Below, in pieces: positions 1 through 6,000 of a stretch of DNA of 7,672 nucleotides. Position 1 is the stretch's first letter. The number at the start of each line of letters is the position of its first letter. This stretch comes from a virus (taxonomy: Duplodnaviria > Heunggongvirae > Uroviricota > Caudoviricetes), in IMG/VR virus record IMGVR_UViG_2671181012_000010; one strand, given 5' to 3'. Position numbers: made by a program.

Positions 1-3000
1 CTGTTTTGGTGTCAATGTCACTGTTACGGCGACACCGTATTTTGCCCAAATCAGGCAAAATTGCTTACCCGAACCCGGTAAATTTGCGCGCTTTTTCGAT
101 CATCGCGTATCGGTTTCGTTTTGCACTTCCTGTTGCGTTTCGTTTTTGAGAAAAATGCGCACTTTTTCCGGTGGCTTTTCCCCCTACAAGCCACGTCATA
201 TCTGGCTTTGCTCTGCTGGTCTGTGTGATCGATTTTGTGATCGGTTTTATGATCGATTTGCGCAGTTTTTTGCGCATTTTTTCAGGGATTTTTCACCCCA
301 TCGAAGAGGCTTCTAAGGGGCTGTGAAGTGGGTAGCATTTTGCTGTGATGGAAGGACTACCGCTACTGTCTGATAATGGTGACGGAGGCCGCTATGTTCG
401 GCTCTGATTGCAGCCTGCCGTATATTCACCAATTTACCTGGCTGTTATTTCCATAACCCGTAATGTCGCCGATCCCGTCTGATTCCCATATCGTCAACAG
501 TCTTATTTACAGCATCCTGAAGTTCGCAAGGCATATTTCCCGCCGTCTGGCTATATGCTCTCGCTGCGGATCGGTGTGGGCCTCTTTCATTACGTCAAGC
601 CAACGAGCGGCGGCTCTTCGCCATAGTCCCTGAGATTCCAGTTGTTCGGCTTTTTTATCAGTTATTGTGTCCATATTAACTTCCGTCTCTTCGCCCTGTT
701 TCACCCCTGTACTTCGTGCCCCGTAAAGGATCTTCTTTTTTCTGGTCAATCCCCATATCTTTAAGCGTTCTGGTCGCTGCTGCCCTGACGGCGCATACAT
801 GCCCCCACTCTGTTGTTTTTGGTCTGGTGGCTTTTGCCGTACATTGTGCCCTTCGTTGGGTAATATAGTGCCTCTCTTCATCACTTTTTGCCTGTCTGAA
901 CAATTCTCCCCAGCGTTCAGCAGCACGCCGCCAGAGGCCGCTATTCTCCAGCGCTTCAGCCTTGTCATCACGTATCATCTGTACCCCGCCGATTCTGTCC
1001 TTTCAAAATTTGCCTTATGGCTTATTGTATGAGGGATTCATCCTACAACAAGAAAGGTCACTATGAGACTGACGCAATACAAAAAAGAGATCCTCAGTTA
1101 CTTCACTCCTGACAATCTGTCGTGGGTCAGAGGTGAAATTGGTAACCCGCCGTTTGATGTCTCCGGTGTGGCTTACCTGCTGTATGGCATAGATTCACAC
1201 AACAACCGATATCAGCTCGAATCAACAAGGCGCACACTTGAAGCGATGGTCCGTGACGGTCTTCTGGAGCGGGTTAACGTGTATGAGCGGCGTGAGGGAA
1301 CAGGTGATGGTGTTCGTCGAAAGGTGGCGCGTTATGGCCTGCCTGGTCATTCTGTTGTGGTGCGTGACGGTGAGGGCCGGAACGGTGCAATTGACGGCGA
1401 ATGTATACGCATCAATGCTACAGATGTGGTGCTGGTGGACGGGCAATAAAAAACCCTGAATAACTCCGCTGGGTGCTTCAATTGCACGGGGCGAAATCCT
1501 TCAGGGTCAGCCGTAACGGGTCTCTGTACAGGTGGCTTCAGTTGCCAGAAGATGAACGCCCGTTACAGCCTGCTGTGATAAGCCGCTTTACAGTGAGCTT
1601 CAATTGCTCAAAGAGGCGCGTTTTTATCACAACTTTGCCACAATAACCCGCTGTACAGAGGGCTCCAGTTGCCCAAAGAGGCGCATTCTTATCGCGGCAT
1701 GACGAAATCACCGTGATGTTTTCGTCGTTCACTCATCCCGATGTGTGTGACAAGTACACATCAAAATGAGTGCCGAAAAGCCGCTGGCTGGCTTCATTCG
1801 GCGAGGCTCCCGTTGCCTGCGGAGAACACCATCAACGGCCTTTCGGTGGTGATTATAGCGAATCGCGATAATTGAGCAAATACGGCGATGAGATACGTAT
1901 CACGATAGCGCTAAATCGTCGCCTGCATCACTGAAGCTGTAATTTTTCCATTCATCCTGCGGATTAATCCCCATCTCTTTCAGCGTTCTGTCTGCGGCCT
2001 TTTTCACATCGCCAAAGGTGACGAACTGCTCAGGCATACGACGGGATTTAATGATGCATATCGCCCGACGTCTGGCAGCTTCCTCGCGCTCCCTGTCCGT
2101 TTCTGCGTGAAGAAGGACGTCAGAGCATCGGGTCGCCGCACGTCGCCATAAACCACGCTCCTCAAGTTTCTGTGCCACGCTGTCTGTTATCACTCTCACC
2201 ACCTCCCGTATCCTGCCACTGGATGTTTTGCTGTTTTATCTGCTCCAGCCTCCACATCAGTTGTTCGCTGGCTGCTGCTTTCTCTTTCTCCGTGACTTCG
2301 CCGCAAGGTTGCCCGTTCAGGTCGTACCGTGGGCCACCAGCAATAATCGCCTTAAGGTATCGCGTCGTGTGAAGGTGTGAGGTTAATGCGCCGCGTAATA
2401 CACCTGTAGCAAGTGGCAACTCCCGTGATTTAGCGTCCTCAAGCACATCACGTATTATGCCAGCCTTCAGGGGTTTTATATTCTCTGTCCCAAACAGCTC
2501 AGGCCAGTATTCCGCAATTCGATTTATTCGTCTGTGGTTTTTTCGTTGCTCTTTTGTCATGTGCTGCCACGGTATGCGCCGTGATGGTTTACGTGTGGTC
2601 TGGTCCTGTTGTGTGGTCTGCTGGTTCATGTTGTGCTCCTGTCATTCAGAACGGAATATCGTCAGAGAACGGGTCATCACCTCCCGCTGGTGGCTGATTT
2701 CCCTGCTGTCCGGTCTGTCGTTTTGCTCTTTCCAGTGCTTCGGTCGCCTTCCCCTGTTGCCCCCGCTTCCCGCCAGGACGCGCCGAACGGGCACTGATTA
2801 CGCTGTCAGCGATAACCTGCCAGCCCTGCCGTATTTCTCCGTTCTGTCCGGTCCACTGGCTGATCTGCATGTTACCCGCCACGCTGATAAGGTCGCCTTT
2901 TTCATGTCTCGCCAGCGCGTCGGCTTGCTTACCAAATGCCAGGACTGATAGCCATAACGTCGCCTGTCCGTCCTGTGCCTGACTGCATGGCAAAGATACC

Positions 3001-6000
3001 GCCATACGCGCCAGTGCCATTGGTGTTCCTTTGCTGGTCTGTTTTTCCTGCGGGTCGTCCACCAGCCGCCCGTAAGCTGCAATCTGTGCTGTCATGATTC
3101 CACCTCTCCGGTTTTAACGTTGATGGTTGCTACCTGTTCCGCTTCAGCAATCTCCCGTTCTGTCAGCGTGGCAAAGTTTGCCGCCGCCGTGGTCATGAAT
3201 GCGCTTATCAGTTCGGGATGTTCCTTCGCGTATCCTTCTCCCGTGTTGCGGTCAATGATTTTTATCGCCACCCTCAGCCAGTGCTCTGTAATGTCAATGG
3301 CGCGGTGATCTGTCTTTTTGTGGCTTACTTTCATGATTTACTCCAGAGTACCGCTATTGCTGCCGTCGTTAACCGGATACCAGGCAAATACCCATGACTC
3401 ACCGCAGTGAACAAACTTCTTATCTGGCAGATAAAGGCACTCGCACGCCCCACAATCAGAATAATGCGGCTCCATGCCTGCTTCACCTGGCAAGACGGGT
3501 AGTATCTCCTGATACGCACATCCCGTATTACAGGGGGCGACCTCACAAAGCGCCCATGCAGCAATTGGGCTATACCATTCCGTACCGTCGTCATCTTTGA
3601 ACCTCGCCCACCAGCCAGGAAGGGCGCCTGATATGCTCAGCGTTTTAATGTCAGAGTTCATAAATTCACCTTTAAGTATCTTTGTCCTGCCGTGCTGCCT
3701 GATTTTCATTTTTTCTTTGCTCATTACATGATTCTCTCTGTAGTTACTGCGGGGAAATGGCATTAATCTCCCGCTTTGCTCTCTGTTTTTTAACTTCACA
3801 TATTCACTTATAAAGACACTTTTTGGGCGGATAAGCGGATATGAAGAAAAATATTGTTTGCATTCATTGTGTTACGTGATTTTTCGTATCCACCCATATC
3901 CGCCTTGTATGTTTTTTCTCTTCAGAATCAAACAGATAATGGCGGATACGGCTTTGTGTGTTTTTTGCACAAGATTGATATTTATCAATTTCCTCTCATA
4001 ACAGGGCGGATATATGCGGATAAGGGTGGATACGGAAATACAATATAATGATCTGATATATAAGCACTTTATTAACCATATCCGCTTATCCGCCCACTTT
4101 TTTACGCGTACACGAGAATACGATTTTTACTCCTCCGACTGGTCAAGAAGCACAATAAAGCGTTGCTGTATTCCGTTAACCTTTATCGTTTTGGTCGTCC
4201 AGTTTTTATCACCTGCATGAATCAGAATTCCGGCTTCTTTCAGTGCCTGGCATCCAAAATTTCGGTTAATGCCACACAGGATTTCTTCATCAAATACTGA
4301 CGGTATGATGTGGTATTCCGGTAATCCGTCATCACGTCGCCCTCTCACCAGATACCCCGCCAGACTGGTGATTCTCGCTCCGTAATTCACGTCCATATCT
4401 CCGTTCTGTCTGCCGTATGTGTACGGCTGAAAACGGCTAAGGGCGTGACGCTGAATGAAATCGCGGGCGCGACTGATAACCTGATATTTTTCCCTGTTAT
4501 CCAGTCCAAAATCCTGCAACCAGTCATCAAAAGCGCGCTGTGTGGCTGCATGGCTTTCTCCCGTTGTCCATCCGGTTATTCCCGTTGCCAGTTCTCCGGC
4601 TGCATCCAGCATTGCAAAACGGGATGCCACGCGTTTCACCTGGGGGGAAGCATTTTCAGGAAGACGACTAAGCCAGATGTTTTCTTTTTCGTTAACCACA
4701 CTGACCGCAAGTTCTTTGTTGGCTGACAACCAGCCGATCCACTCACGACCCGCTGCTCCGCAATAATTCGATGCAAACCGTTTTATTGCTCTGGCGTGCT
4801 GATCACCATCGTCATATCCGTTAAAAACCGTTGTATCAATAAACGGCACACTTAACAGGCGCACCAGTTGACCAGCTTTAGGCGTCACACCGCCCTTAAT
4901 CAGGAAGGTTTCGAAATCCTCCTCTCCCGTGCTCAGGGCCGCGATTCTCCAGCGTATCACCGCACGGTTACCGCCATCCTTACGCCCCTGAATACGCCCC
5001 ACACCGTTAAACAGGCTGTAGGCTGACTGCGCAATATCGTTAATCCGTCCGCCCTGACCGATTTCATCAATGGGGATAAAGCCATCATTACGTGCCGCAG
5101 CTTCCACCGTGAGGCCGTATCTGGTTGCATCCCATGAAAGTTTCAGCACTTCAGGATCACCGTAAAGACTTGTTGCTGCTTCCACTGTCGTGGTTTTTCC
5201 TGCCGACGACTGCGCAAAAAGATGAACACCAAAACAGCCGCCACCAACAAGGGAGTTCAGGGGGGCGGCAAGCCCGACCAGCACTCCAAGCATCATTGAG
5301 TGATTACCGCGCATCAGTGAGGCAACATTGTCGCGCCACTCATCAGCCGTACCCCGAACCACATAACCTTTAATCGCCGCCGAACCACCACAGAAGGCAA
5401 CGGGCCTTTCTGGTACGCCAATAATCTCACCATCCGGCATGACATAAGCGCCACAATGCCACCCCGCCGTTGAGGTGACCTCCCACTGTGTCCGCTCTCC
5501 TTCACGCTGAAGGTATTCCGCAAGTTTGTTTAAAAGTTTCTGACTGGTTGTCACTGCCACCCCACGCCCACGCAATCGCGACCATCCAGAAGGGAGGCCG
5601 ATTTCATTGCGGGGCATGGCCTCATAAATAATTTTTTCCATTCCCTCTGGTTCAAGTTCGATTATCAGATACCCATCGCAGCCATCATGGCCGATCCCCA
5701 CGGTTCGCATACGGTCACCAATCCACTCACACGGGCGGATAATTTCACCGGATTGCTTATCAACCTTTGGCGTAACCCAGTAAACGCCATCAGGACGGCA
5801 TTCAACGCGGGGTTTTAATTCATCCTCTGATTGTTCTGATGTTTTTTTCTTTACAGGCAGCTCAATAACCAGTCCGTCAGAAATGTTTTTGCGCTCAGTC
5901 TCCAGATAGTTACGCCAGTTCTGCCGCTCGTTATGGTGCATACCTTCGGGGTAATAGTCTGCGTCCTGTACGCCTGCCGCCGCCAGCTTCTGACCTATGC

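Follow-up and report, generated by a model that had tools for sequence, protein, structure and literature searches.

The DNA analysed here, a 7,672-nt stretch of the IMG/VR virus record IMGVR_UViG_2671181012_000010 (Caudoviricetes; the whole stretch is hereafter called the window), carries a compact cluster of five genes on its minus strand and, just downstream of them, a conserved array of RNA-like hairpins. We consider it probable, with moderate confidence, that the window is part of a phage satellite of the phage-inducible chromosomal island (PICI) type, one without packaging genes, residing in Escherichia coli of the Shiga toxin-producing (STEC) type, and that the cluster forms the section beyond the origin in this island's early operon, which combines replication and accessory genes. 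The cluster encodes a 107-amino-acid (aa) protein, an 80-aa protein, a single-stranded DNA-binding protein (SSB), a protein consisting of little more than a FinO domain, and a PerC-family regulator. Most of what it holds is commonplace in elements of a known kind, PICI-type satellites. New, or at least undescribed, are a sublineage in which a minimal FinO-domain chaperone stands where packaging genes would be, a tandem-hairpin RNA supported by covariation, and a recurrent neighbourhood of the 107-aa gene and FinO-domain genes.

At 100% identity, the window matches a chromosomal island of E. coli 2012EL-2448 (NZ_CP027586), positioned between tRNA-Gly and a remnant of the E. coli type III secretion system 2 (ETT2); 2147 of the 2149 matching places are chromosomal. 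Read in the direction of the cluster, the island begins with a P4-type integrase gene that adjoins tRNA-Gly, a hypothetical gene, AlpA, Rha, a partial AntA/B gene and ‘Icd-like’ open reading frames (ORFs), continues with three small ORFs, a DUF927 primase-helicase gene, the five-gene cluster and a convergent 128-aa ORF, and ends with two more PerC genes and small ORFs followed by antiterminator Q. The integrase has the Arm-DNA-bind_3, Phage_int_M and Phage_integrase domains, AlpA matches PF05930 (72.5 bits) and antiterminator Q matches PF06530 (170 bits). From tRNA-Gly to the last island gene the element measures ~15 kb, where about 10–18 kb is expected of a PICI, and no structural, lysis, relaxase or type IV secretion system (T4SS) genes are annotated in it. 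The features by which PICIs are recognised are thus partly present: an integrase, an AlpA-type regulator and a primase in order at a specific site, an iteron-bearing origin 3′ of the rep gene, and no structural or lysis genes. We assign the island to the PICI type because integrase, AlpA, primase and iteron origin occur together within ~15 kb without virion genes, and the missing packaging module makes it ‘Type C’ under a published scheme (PMC10085698). An earlier reading of the window, made from the sequence alone, had likened the cluster to gene sets of transferable elements, and on the point of mobility it was right.

The replication machinery lies immediately upstream of the cluster. The DUF927 primase/helicase (712 aa; 4127–6265, minus strand), which matches PF06048 (139 bits) and phrog_1139, ‘DNA primase’ (317 bits), is the replicase of the element. 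Directly 3′ of its gene, positions 3824–4096 contain eight exact TATCCGC iterons and variants of them, TATCCAC included, in inverted groups around an AT-rich centre (38–39% GC). TATCCGC matches 11 times in the window, versus 0.88 expected, and 8 of these 11 matches are clustered here. This segment is probably the replication origin of the island; an origin directly 3′ of the rep gene is typical PICI architecture (PMC6092414).

Further upstream, a C4-type antisense RNA of the P1 c4 family (7291–7379, minus strand) gives a full-length match to RF01695 (73.3 bits, gathering cut-off 45). It is preceded at 7405–7495 by an a1/b1-target and isrK-like leader (RF03163, 32 bits, and RF01394, 37.6 bits, both below their gathering cut-offs), and the immunity region is of the P1 immI type. 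C4 occurs in two copies in the island, at 20193–20281 and 20546–20633 of L001; L001–L019 are the labels of the compared loci, and L001 is the region that contains the island of the window. The only sigma70-like promoter on the minus strand of the whole window (7518–7489) stands just upstream of the leader of the C4 region, and from there down to 1900 the scan found no minus-strand terminator-like site except a weak one inside the primase gene. The region 7291–7518 is likely to comprise the start and the immunity control of a long leftward operon. RefSeq annotates ‘frameshifted’ or partial Icd-like proteins over the C4 RNA genes. This annotation is probably an artefact. Since it covers a genuine C4 RNA gene, the decay that the island seems to show is in part an artefact as well.

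The five genes follow the origin on the minus strand. The first (3338–3661) encodes the 107-aa protein, with seven cysteines, those of its CGACEC and HCG motifs included; its ATG at 3661, preceded by an AAAGGTG Shine–Dalgarno sequence, is also the RefSeq start. Then come the 80-aa ORF (3092–3334), a member of PHROG 1231; the gene for the 149-aa SSB (2646–3095); that for the 155-aa FinO-domain-only protein (2162–2629); and that for the PerC-family regulator (1900–2193/2202, RefSeq placing its start at 2193). The gene identities and their order agree with those of the sequence-only reading, as judged from the ORFs, Pfam and NCBIfam. That reading had also described stops and starts as overlapping. 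The overlaps exist at two junctions, a 4-nt ATGA between the 80-aa and SSB genes and 32–41 nt between the FinO-domain and PerC genes; the 107-aa and 80-aa genes are separated by a 3-nt gap, as read from the sequence, and the SSB and FinO-domain genes by a 16-nt gap that contains AGGAG. A Shine–Dalgarno-like sequence precedes every start, and our scan found no promoter-like or terminator-like site inside the cluster. Together with the tight packing on one strand, this bears out the earlier view of a likely operon; co-transcription of the five genes is consistent with the scan, which does not prove it.

The ratios of nonsynonymous to synonymous substitution (dN/dS) against diverged copies were 0.25–0.40 for the 107-aa gene, 0.30–0.42 for the 80-aa gene, 0.14–0.38 for ssb and 0.22–0.24 for the FinO-domain gene, a pattern of substitution that points to purifying selection on all four genes tested. 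Since the reading frames are intact in diverged copies and dN/dS lies between 0.14 and 0.42, we regard the ORFs as true genes and not as products of chance.

SSB was identified by PF00436 (55.4 bits, cut-off 26), TIGR00621 (63.6 bits, cut-off 53.95) and phrog_44 (6e-40). It ends in ...GGDDPFSDDIPF, and the acidic tip reads DDIPF or DNIPF in 7/7 copies compared. The protein scores 21 bits against the plasmid-SSB model NF010292, whose cut-off is 265, and is <30% identical to the SSBs of isolated phages.

The FinO-domain protein combines a basic, Q-rich N-terminal tail with a FinO domain (PF04352, 82.1 bits, cut-off 27; residues 31–135) and ends soon after it, without a ProQ-type C-terminal domain. 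Its sequence matches in the Protein Data Bank (PDB) are the N-terminal domain of ProQ (5nb9, 3.9e-12), FinO (1dvo), RocC (7rgu) and NMB1681. It stays below the equivalog cut-offs of both ProQ (NF003434, 54.2 vs 127 bits) and FinO (NF010317, 54.6 vs 136 bits). Y91, L92, R101, D103, G106, P108, G110 and E111 are invariant in the island homologues and the N-terminal domain of E. coli ProQ. We take these residues to be the RNA 3′-end pocket known from ProQ and RocC studies (the counterparts of Y70 and R80 in ProQ, with the motif D-x-x-G-x-P-x-G-E). A first scan of genome contigs with a single FinO-domain protein as query gave no match. Of 5426 complete E. coli genomes, 115 have the gene, and those among the matches listed are mostly STEC or enterohaemorrhagic E. 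coli (EHEC). Thousands of plasmids carry distant FinO relatives, the best of which is <55% identical to the island protein. The PerC-like protein encoded next to it matches PF06069 (89.1 bits, cut-off 22.6). We found no functional work in the literature on the island SSB, the FinO-domain protein or the two small proteins, and neither a study of ProQ in EHEC nor a review of the FinO/ProQ family mentions an island-encoded FinO-domain copy.

Downstream of the PerC stop codon at 1900, and reaching to the stop of the convergent 128-aa ORF at 1449, lies a conserved region of ~400–450 nt (1447–1900, minus strand) that appears to be a structured non-coding RNA. It is 92% identical over 450 nt across seven FinO-bearing loci and more conserved than the proteins flanking it; no genome has a coding sequence annotated there, and its indels are of 1, 2, 4 and 12 nt. 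The minus strand folds at −186.5 kcal/mol (z = −7.6) and the plus strand at −167.8 kcal/mol (z = −4.4), and many invariant G–U pairs would be mismatches on the opposite strand. The motif GCAAYTGRAGC occurs in four exact copies, versus 0.04 expected, spaced 60–65 nt apart. These copies mark 4–5 tandem hairpin units of ~62 nt each with one architecture, in which GCAAYUGRAGC forms an apical 4-bp stem with a 7-nt loop and the outer stems differ in sequence and keep their pairing. The last hairpin is followed by U6 at 1453–1448. At the other end, an invariant TTGCTC (1879–1874), a 16-nt spacer and TATAAT (1857–1852) may form a promoter of the region's own.

Covariation supports the fold. RNAalifold predicted 149 pairs, 10 of them with compensatory changes; 98.2% of cells were paired, versus 35–48% in slid controls, and 23 cells showed double changes, versus 0–3 in slid controls, with none of 500 shuffles reaching the observed covariation, the structure having been derived from the same seven related sequences as the test. 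No Rfam family matches the region. We followed its distribution by pattern scan and not with a covariance model of the unit, because MAFFT left the paralogous outer stems out of register. The region is found in 116 E. coli genomes, a number close to that for the FinO-domain gene; it adjoins the ProQ–PerC gene pair in every examined locus that has it, including two IMG/VR contigs, and is missing from all FinO-less PICIs examined. In IMG/VR, 12 of the 14 pattern matches were single chance matches. Going by position, conservation and fold, we regard 1447–1900 as a candidate 3′ untranslated region or non-coding RNA, and as a candidate ligand of the FinO-domain protein.

The 80-aa protein belongs to the backbone of these elements. 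The sequence-only reading could name no family for either small protein. Neither has a match in Pfam, NCBIfam or PADLOC, which upholds that statement in part; the 80-aa protein, however, is a member of PHROG 1231 (1.6e-46), with 165 homologues. Its gene was found in 1521 of the 5426 E. coli genomes (28%), in up to six copies per genome and at ~2012 places. Typically it comes first behind the origin, its stop codon sharing ATGA with the SSB start. Genes of this family follow the primase or Rep gene in PICIs that bear capsid or terS genes, accompany all three replicase types described below, and occur also without SSB (L006). From this distribution the 80-aa gene appears to be a backbone gene of E. 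coli PICIs and not cargo. The C-terminal 50 residues (EGYAK.HP.LISAFMTTAAANFATLTEREIAEAEQVTTINVKTGE) are nearly invariant. An AlphaFold2 (AF2) model shows three helices with a predicted local distance difference test (pLDDT) score of 70.7; the fold has no match in the PDB or BFVD, and the sequence none in the PDB. We considered whether the 80-aa and 128-aa proteins might be Rpp, which redirects TerS, and set this aside: neither has a sequence match in the PDB, Rpp structures included. Described Rpp proteins have 144–153 aa (PMC6739421).

The 107-aa protein has a narrower distribution. It matches phrog_27268 (1.5e-10), and its homologues number five by word-indexed search and 31 representative clusters by exhaustive hidden Markov model (HMM) search; the gene occurs in 17 of the 5426 E. 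coli genomes. What the family keeps are the motifs PGWWA.F.D.DG..WY.PVAAWAL and ILPV, after which we call it PGWW; its cysteines vary. Only C39 of the seven is invariant among the 12 closer members, distant members lack the rest, and C44, C48 and C70 are lost even in E. coli copies that are 78% identical. ‘Cys-rich’, the trait by which the earlier reading had singled this protein out, turned out to be a false lead, the cysteines being unconserved, and metal binding of the zinc-ribbon kind is for the same reason unsupported as a family property. Other candidate identities also fell away. The AF2 model, built on three sequences, reached a pLDDT of 53, and its Foldseek matches in the PDB were noise (E > 1). 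Matches of the PGWW profile to transcription activator-like (TAL) effectors and other repeat proteins came from short LPVL-type motifs multiplied by the repeats, with no single significant stretch. A ‘split ProQ’, in which the PGWW protein would supply the Tudor-like C-terminal domain of ProQ in trans, gave an hhalign probability of 0.1.

The PGWW gene recurs next to FinO-domain genes. In Providencia, Morganella, Xenorhabdus and Photorhabdus, a homologous primase gene (40–61% identity) is followed first by the PGWW gene. The PGWW stop codon overlaps a FinO-domain start in Providencia, and in Photorhabdus a FinO-domain gene lies 214 nt further on. Six of the ten PGWW-bearing loci examined also carry a FinO-domain gene, adjoining it; the background for this pairing in E. 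coli is ~122 FinO-bearing versus the ~2012 PHROG-1231-bearing places. This neighbourhood, which comprises few independent events, suggests a functional link, and the PGWW protein may be a facultative accessory that travels with FinO-domain genes and acts as a partner of the FinO-domain protein. In L003 the PGWW gene stands without the 80-aa gene. Isolated phage genomes gave no match for either small protein. Two database proteins join the two families: P0005 fuses a PGWW N-terminus to an 80-aa C-terminus and for that reason appears to be a deletion variant, and in P0252 a C-terminus of the 80-aa family precedes a PGWW-family domain, the gene order there being reversed or read through.

Regions for comparison with the island came from eleven further E. 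coli genomes, from four genomes of other genera and from two IMG/VR contigs. Primase/Rep gene, origin, (small genes), SSB, (FinO-domain gene) and PerC form the core order, which is found at four integration sites in complete E. coli genomes (tRNA-Gly, yicC/dinD, tqsA and cspD), with replicases of three types (DUF927, a P4-alpha-like primase of shorter length and a RepA helicase), and in elements that have capsid, terS or portal genes as well as in those that lack them. In Nissle 1917, the tRNA-Pro element has a primase, an 80-aa-family gene and SSB without PerC, and the clpS/cspD element of O157:H7 has a primase and an 80-aa-family gene with neither SSB nor PerC. The slot between origin and ssb is elsewhere empty, or filled by an unrelated 257-aa protein gene (L004 11993–12766) or by unrelated genes for 138- or 149-aa proteins (L014 8869–9318; L015 8890–9339; L016 8869–9285), none with a Pfam match and each overlapping the SSB start; judged by gene content, it is a small variable cassette site. 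The small proteins of the window are accordingly facultative, and are conserved where they are present; the sequence-only reading had named non-conservation or disruption of these ORFs in related elements as what would speak against it, and neither was found.

Beside the main subjects, several features complete the window and its relatives. The convergent 128-aa ORF (1063–1449, plus strand), whose stop codon abuts or overlaps the U-tract of the structured region, has no Pfam, PHROG, NCBIfam or PDB match; it is kept in every FinO-bearing element of this backbone and annotated in L001–L004 and L014–L016. A second PerC-family ORF lies at 676–978 and a third, short one ends near 507–674, both on the minus strand, which brings the PerC paralogues in the window to three. 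Between the Icd/C4 region and the primase gene, three small minus-strand ORFs of 63, 69 and 61 aa (6442–7076) are kept in sister elements; the first two are paralogues (both phrog_1478) and the last is phrog_3672. Elsewhere in the family, L015 has a gene for a GIY-YIG nuclease and a long ‘Icd-like’ ORF in its immunity region (14319–15095 and 12719–14371), and L003 a PemK/MazF toxin gene near the Q antiterminator (7911–8345); these are accessory variation. A single match to a direct repeat of clustered regularly interspaced short palindromic repeats (CRISPR; RF01317, 50 bits) at 3193–3220 of L006, beside tRNA-Ser in the O157:H7 flank, has nothing to do with the island.

How such an island might work can be outlined with P1 immI, the P4 early (PLE) operon and PICIs as analogues. 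While the island rests, C4 RNA would limit transcription or translation from the promoter at 7518, and the downstream genes would not be reached. Once a helper phage lifted the repression, or the element entered a naive cell, transcription would run through the primase gene, the origin and the five genes to the hairpin–U6 terminator; such timing of expression is plausible, with the P4 early operon as a parallel. The primase-helicase would open the origin at the TATCCGC iterons, and the island SSB would coat the unwound DNA, its host-like DDIPF tip recruiting host replisome partners so that the satellite could replicate in the face of competition for SSB from the helper phage. The 80-aa protein would most likely serve replication or an early step, since it is translationally coupled to SSB and kept across PICIs with different Rep proteins, or else be a small interference factor.

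The FinO-domain protein would bind RNAs with a stem and a 3′ tail, the first candidate being the tandem-hairpin RNA with its terminator and the second C4 or its leader/target. Such binding could tune the stability or pairing of these RNAs and, through them, PerC expression, immunity or both. Antisense overlap with the transcript of the convergent 128-aa gene would produce hairpin loops that are perfectly complementary, and complementary loops are the substrate of FinO-family chaperones in FinP/traJ and Inc/repZ (PMC9977716). PerC-like proteins would act as transcription regulators, possibly with cross-talk to LEE (locus of enterocyte effacement). Taken to its full extent, this picture is of a satellite lineage, mostly in STEC, with a riboregulatory module of its own: a minimal FinO-domain chaperone, sometimes a PGWW partner, and a dedicated ~400-nt tandem-hairpin RNA, bound to control PerC-type regulators, immunity or the exploitation of a helper. 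We put this forward as a tentative proposal, on balance a doubtful one.

Several observations weigh against the satellite reading or against its riboregulatory extension. No packaging or interference function (terS, capsid morphogenesis, Rpp, cos/pac) is annotated in the island, lambda cosN was not found in it, and sid, delta and psu are missing both from its annotated genes and from those island proteins, not every ORF among them, that were scanned against Pfam and PHROGs; with no packaging, terS, rpp or cos function identified, satellite status rests on family resemblance. Flanking direct repeats of the attachment (att) site, also expected of a PICI, are missing: no exact repeat of ≥12 nt of the tRNA-Gly region occurs elsewhere in L001. 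The Icd-like ORFs are frameshifted in the annotation and neighbouring genes are partial, and together with the missing att repeat this means that the present copy may be immobile. Both small proteins are dispensable to the module, given that their genes are missing from many sister elements, and co-transcription and the timing of expression are things we infer. The link between the FinO-domain protein and either candidate RNA is purely positional, the array is missing from three FinO-bearing elements (L019, L009 and L012), the co-occurrence in E. coli is confounded by shared ancestry, and the hairpins could act as DNA, for example as protein-binding or packaging sites. C4 is present in the FinO-less PICIs L017 and L018 and was undetected in the Providencia and Photorhabdus elements, which weakens the idea of C4 as a ligand. 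We had also considered C4 as an obligatory partner of the FinO-domain protein and rejected it: 7 of 8 FinO-bearing E. coli loci have C4, a proportion that is not significant and is confounded by lineage.

Three other accounts of the cluster deserve consideration. The FinO-domain protein and the translationally coupled PerC might be virulence-regulatory cargo acting mainly on the host, through the LEE regulon and host small-RNA networks, with SSB and the small proteins merely a neighbouring replication module. LEE-positive STEC/EHEC serotypes (O157:H7, O103:H2, O111:H8 and O145) dominate among the FinO-domain carriers in the matches listed, yet the genome collection is itself rich in STEC and this enrichment is that of a raw listing. 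The three PerC paralogues fit such a role, as do the reports that PerC/Pch can activate LEE1 and that OI-51 affects LEE expression and colonisation (PMC3378721), that a PICI PerC-like protein represses LEE (PMC11773190), and that host ProQ regulates EHEC virulence genes (PMC12426089). On the other hand, LEE1 fusions did not respond to the PerC-like proteins of EcCIEDL933 and EcCICFT073, according to a statement in PMC11773190 that cites Porter 2005; FinO-domain genes also follow the primase gene in Providencia and Photorhabdus elements, where there is no LEE; and in the island the gene sits inside the replication/early operon. We judge host-directed cargo unlikely to be the principal explanation, and it is plausibly compatible with a satellite early operon and not exclusive of it. 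A decaying, cryptic element whose cluster has no current function would account for the frameshifted and partial Icd-like and AntA/B genes, for the missing att repeat and for the lack of packaging genes. However, dN/dS stays at 0.14–0.42 with ORFs intact in copies whose dS reaches 0.9, the module recurs at several integration sites and in several genera, compensatory changes maintain the hairpins, and the Icd frameshift is in part an artefact, which together make decay improbable.

The remaining account is the one that the sequence-only reading had favoured by analogy: a conjugative leading-region-like establishment module, in which SSB and FinO act first on entry and the two unknowns are anti-defence cargo. 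SSB and FinO-family genes do occur on conjugative plasmids, the genes may be early after entry if the P4 early operon is a guide, and the slot between origin and ssb is variable in the manner of cargo. Against this, the island has no relaxase, T4SS, origin of transfer (oriT), psiB or ardA, all but two of the matching places are chromosomal, SSB scores far below the plasmid model (21 vs 265 bits), and the plasmid FinO relatives remain <55% identical. A satellite would, moreover, enter as double-stranded DNA in a phage capsid and not as single-stranded DNA. Nothing points to anti-defence cargo either: PADLOC returned 0 families for all seven proteins scanned, and the 80-aa gene, present in 28% of genomes, is backbone. 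We therefore hold a leading-region module to be very improbable and the analogy to have been misplaced, and return to the PICI-type satellite as the reading to be placed among known elements.

PICI-type satellites are present in a large share of E. coli genomes, and the genes after their origins are mostly unannotated. The 80-aa gene is among the commonest of E. coli satellite genes and offers a defined target for work on satellite replication or interference. In the FinO sublineage, enriched in STEC/EHEC among the matches listed, the packaging module is swapped for a FinO-domain chaperone, PerC regulators, the Q antiterminator and an undescribed structured RNA. Should chaperone and RNA indeed cooperate, they would be the first FinO-family chaperone–RNA pair described in a phage satellite, together with a new RNA family; the range of FinO-family riboregulation, now plasmids and chromosomes, would come to include phage satellites, and the state of a satellite could be linked to virulence regulation via PerC and LEE. 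The comparison also brings to light a RefSeq error, the probable misannotation of C4 RNA genes as ‘frameshifted Icd-like’ proteins.

Among known systems, the closest are PICIs of the types CP-933C/OI-51, EcCICFT073 and EcCIEDL933, the last a capsid-forming PICI (cf-PICI). OI-51/CP-933C of O157 has been described with a P4-alpha-like replication gene, AlpA, a putative binding protein for single-stranded DNA, PchE and structural genes (PMC3378721) and is treated as a PICI (PMC6092414). Like the island, these types have a P4-type integrase, AlpA, a primase/Rep gene, an iteron origin, a PHROG-1231 gene, SSB and a PerC-like gene, as seen in L005–L008, L017 and L018. They go on to capsid, terS, portal or Rpp genes, of which the island has none, whereas the island has a FinO-domain gene between ssb and perC, the hairpin region, the 128-aa ORF, two extra perC genes and the Q antiterminator. 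The SSB–PerC arrangement is already known at the level of annotation, and ProQ/FinO and PerC appear among the PICI accessory genes of Enterobacter in a 2026 survey (PMC13612085). EcCIMP1 of E. coli MP1 is a ‘Type C’ PICI, without packaging genes, with an antirepressor, Ash, a primase and PerC, and its induction and mobilisation by a helper phage have been shown by experiment (PMC11773190). It shares with the island the lack of a recognisable capsid or terminase and the presence of integrase, AlpA, antirepressor, an Ash/Icd region, primase and a PerC-like gene, a likeness by gene content only; the main text of PMC11773190 does not mention SSB or ProQ/FinO, and its post-primase genes resemble DNA-transfer and head-morphogenesis proteins of the helper phage.

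With the leading regions of conjugative elements (ssb, psiB, ardA, single-strand promoters) the island shares an element-encoded SSB with a host-like tip and possibly early expression. It differs from them in being a chromosomal satellite without conjugation genes, in an SSB outside the plasmid subfamily and in the structured region downstream of its operon. The likeness to P1 immI (c4-icd-ant) and to P4 early-operon immunity consists of a C4-family RNA, a1/b1-like targets upstream of an Icd-like ORF, antirepressor genes nearby and a primase downstream on the same strand. A P4-type integrase and C4-type RNA immunity are common to P4 and the island, and the sid, delta and psu of P4 are those without counterparts among the island genes annotated or scanned. 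To our knowledge, neither P1 nor P4 encodes the set of SSB, FinO and PerC. In the plasmid systems FinO–FinP/traJ (F) and FopA–Inc/repZ (pCol1B9), as in the island, a small FinO-domain protein is encoded by the element itself; its partner there is a structured, element-encoded antisense RNA with a terminator hairpin and a 3′ tail, which controls transfer or replication (PMC9977716). Those systems use a two-stem-loop RNA of 70–80 nt, whereas the island protein, at most ~55% identical to any plasmid relative, sits in a phage satellite, and its candidate RNA is a ~400-nt array of 4–5 hairpins.

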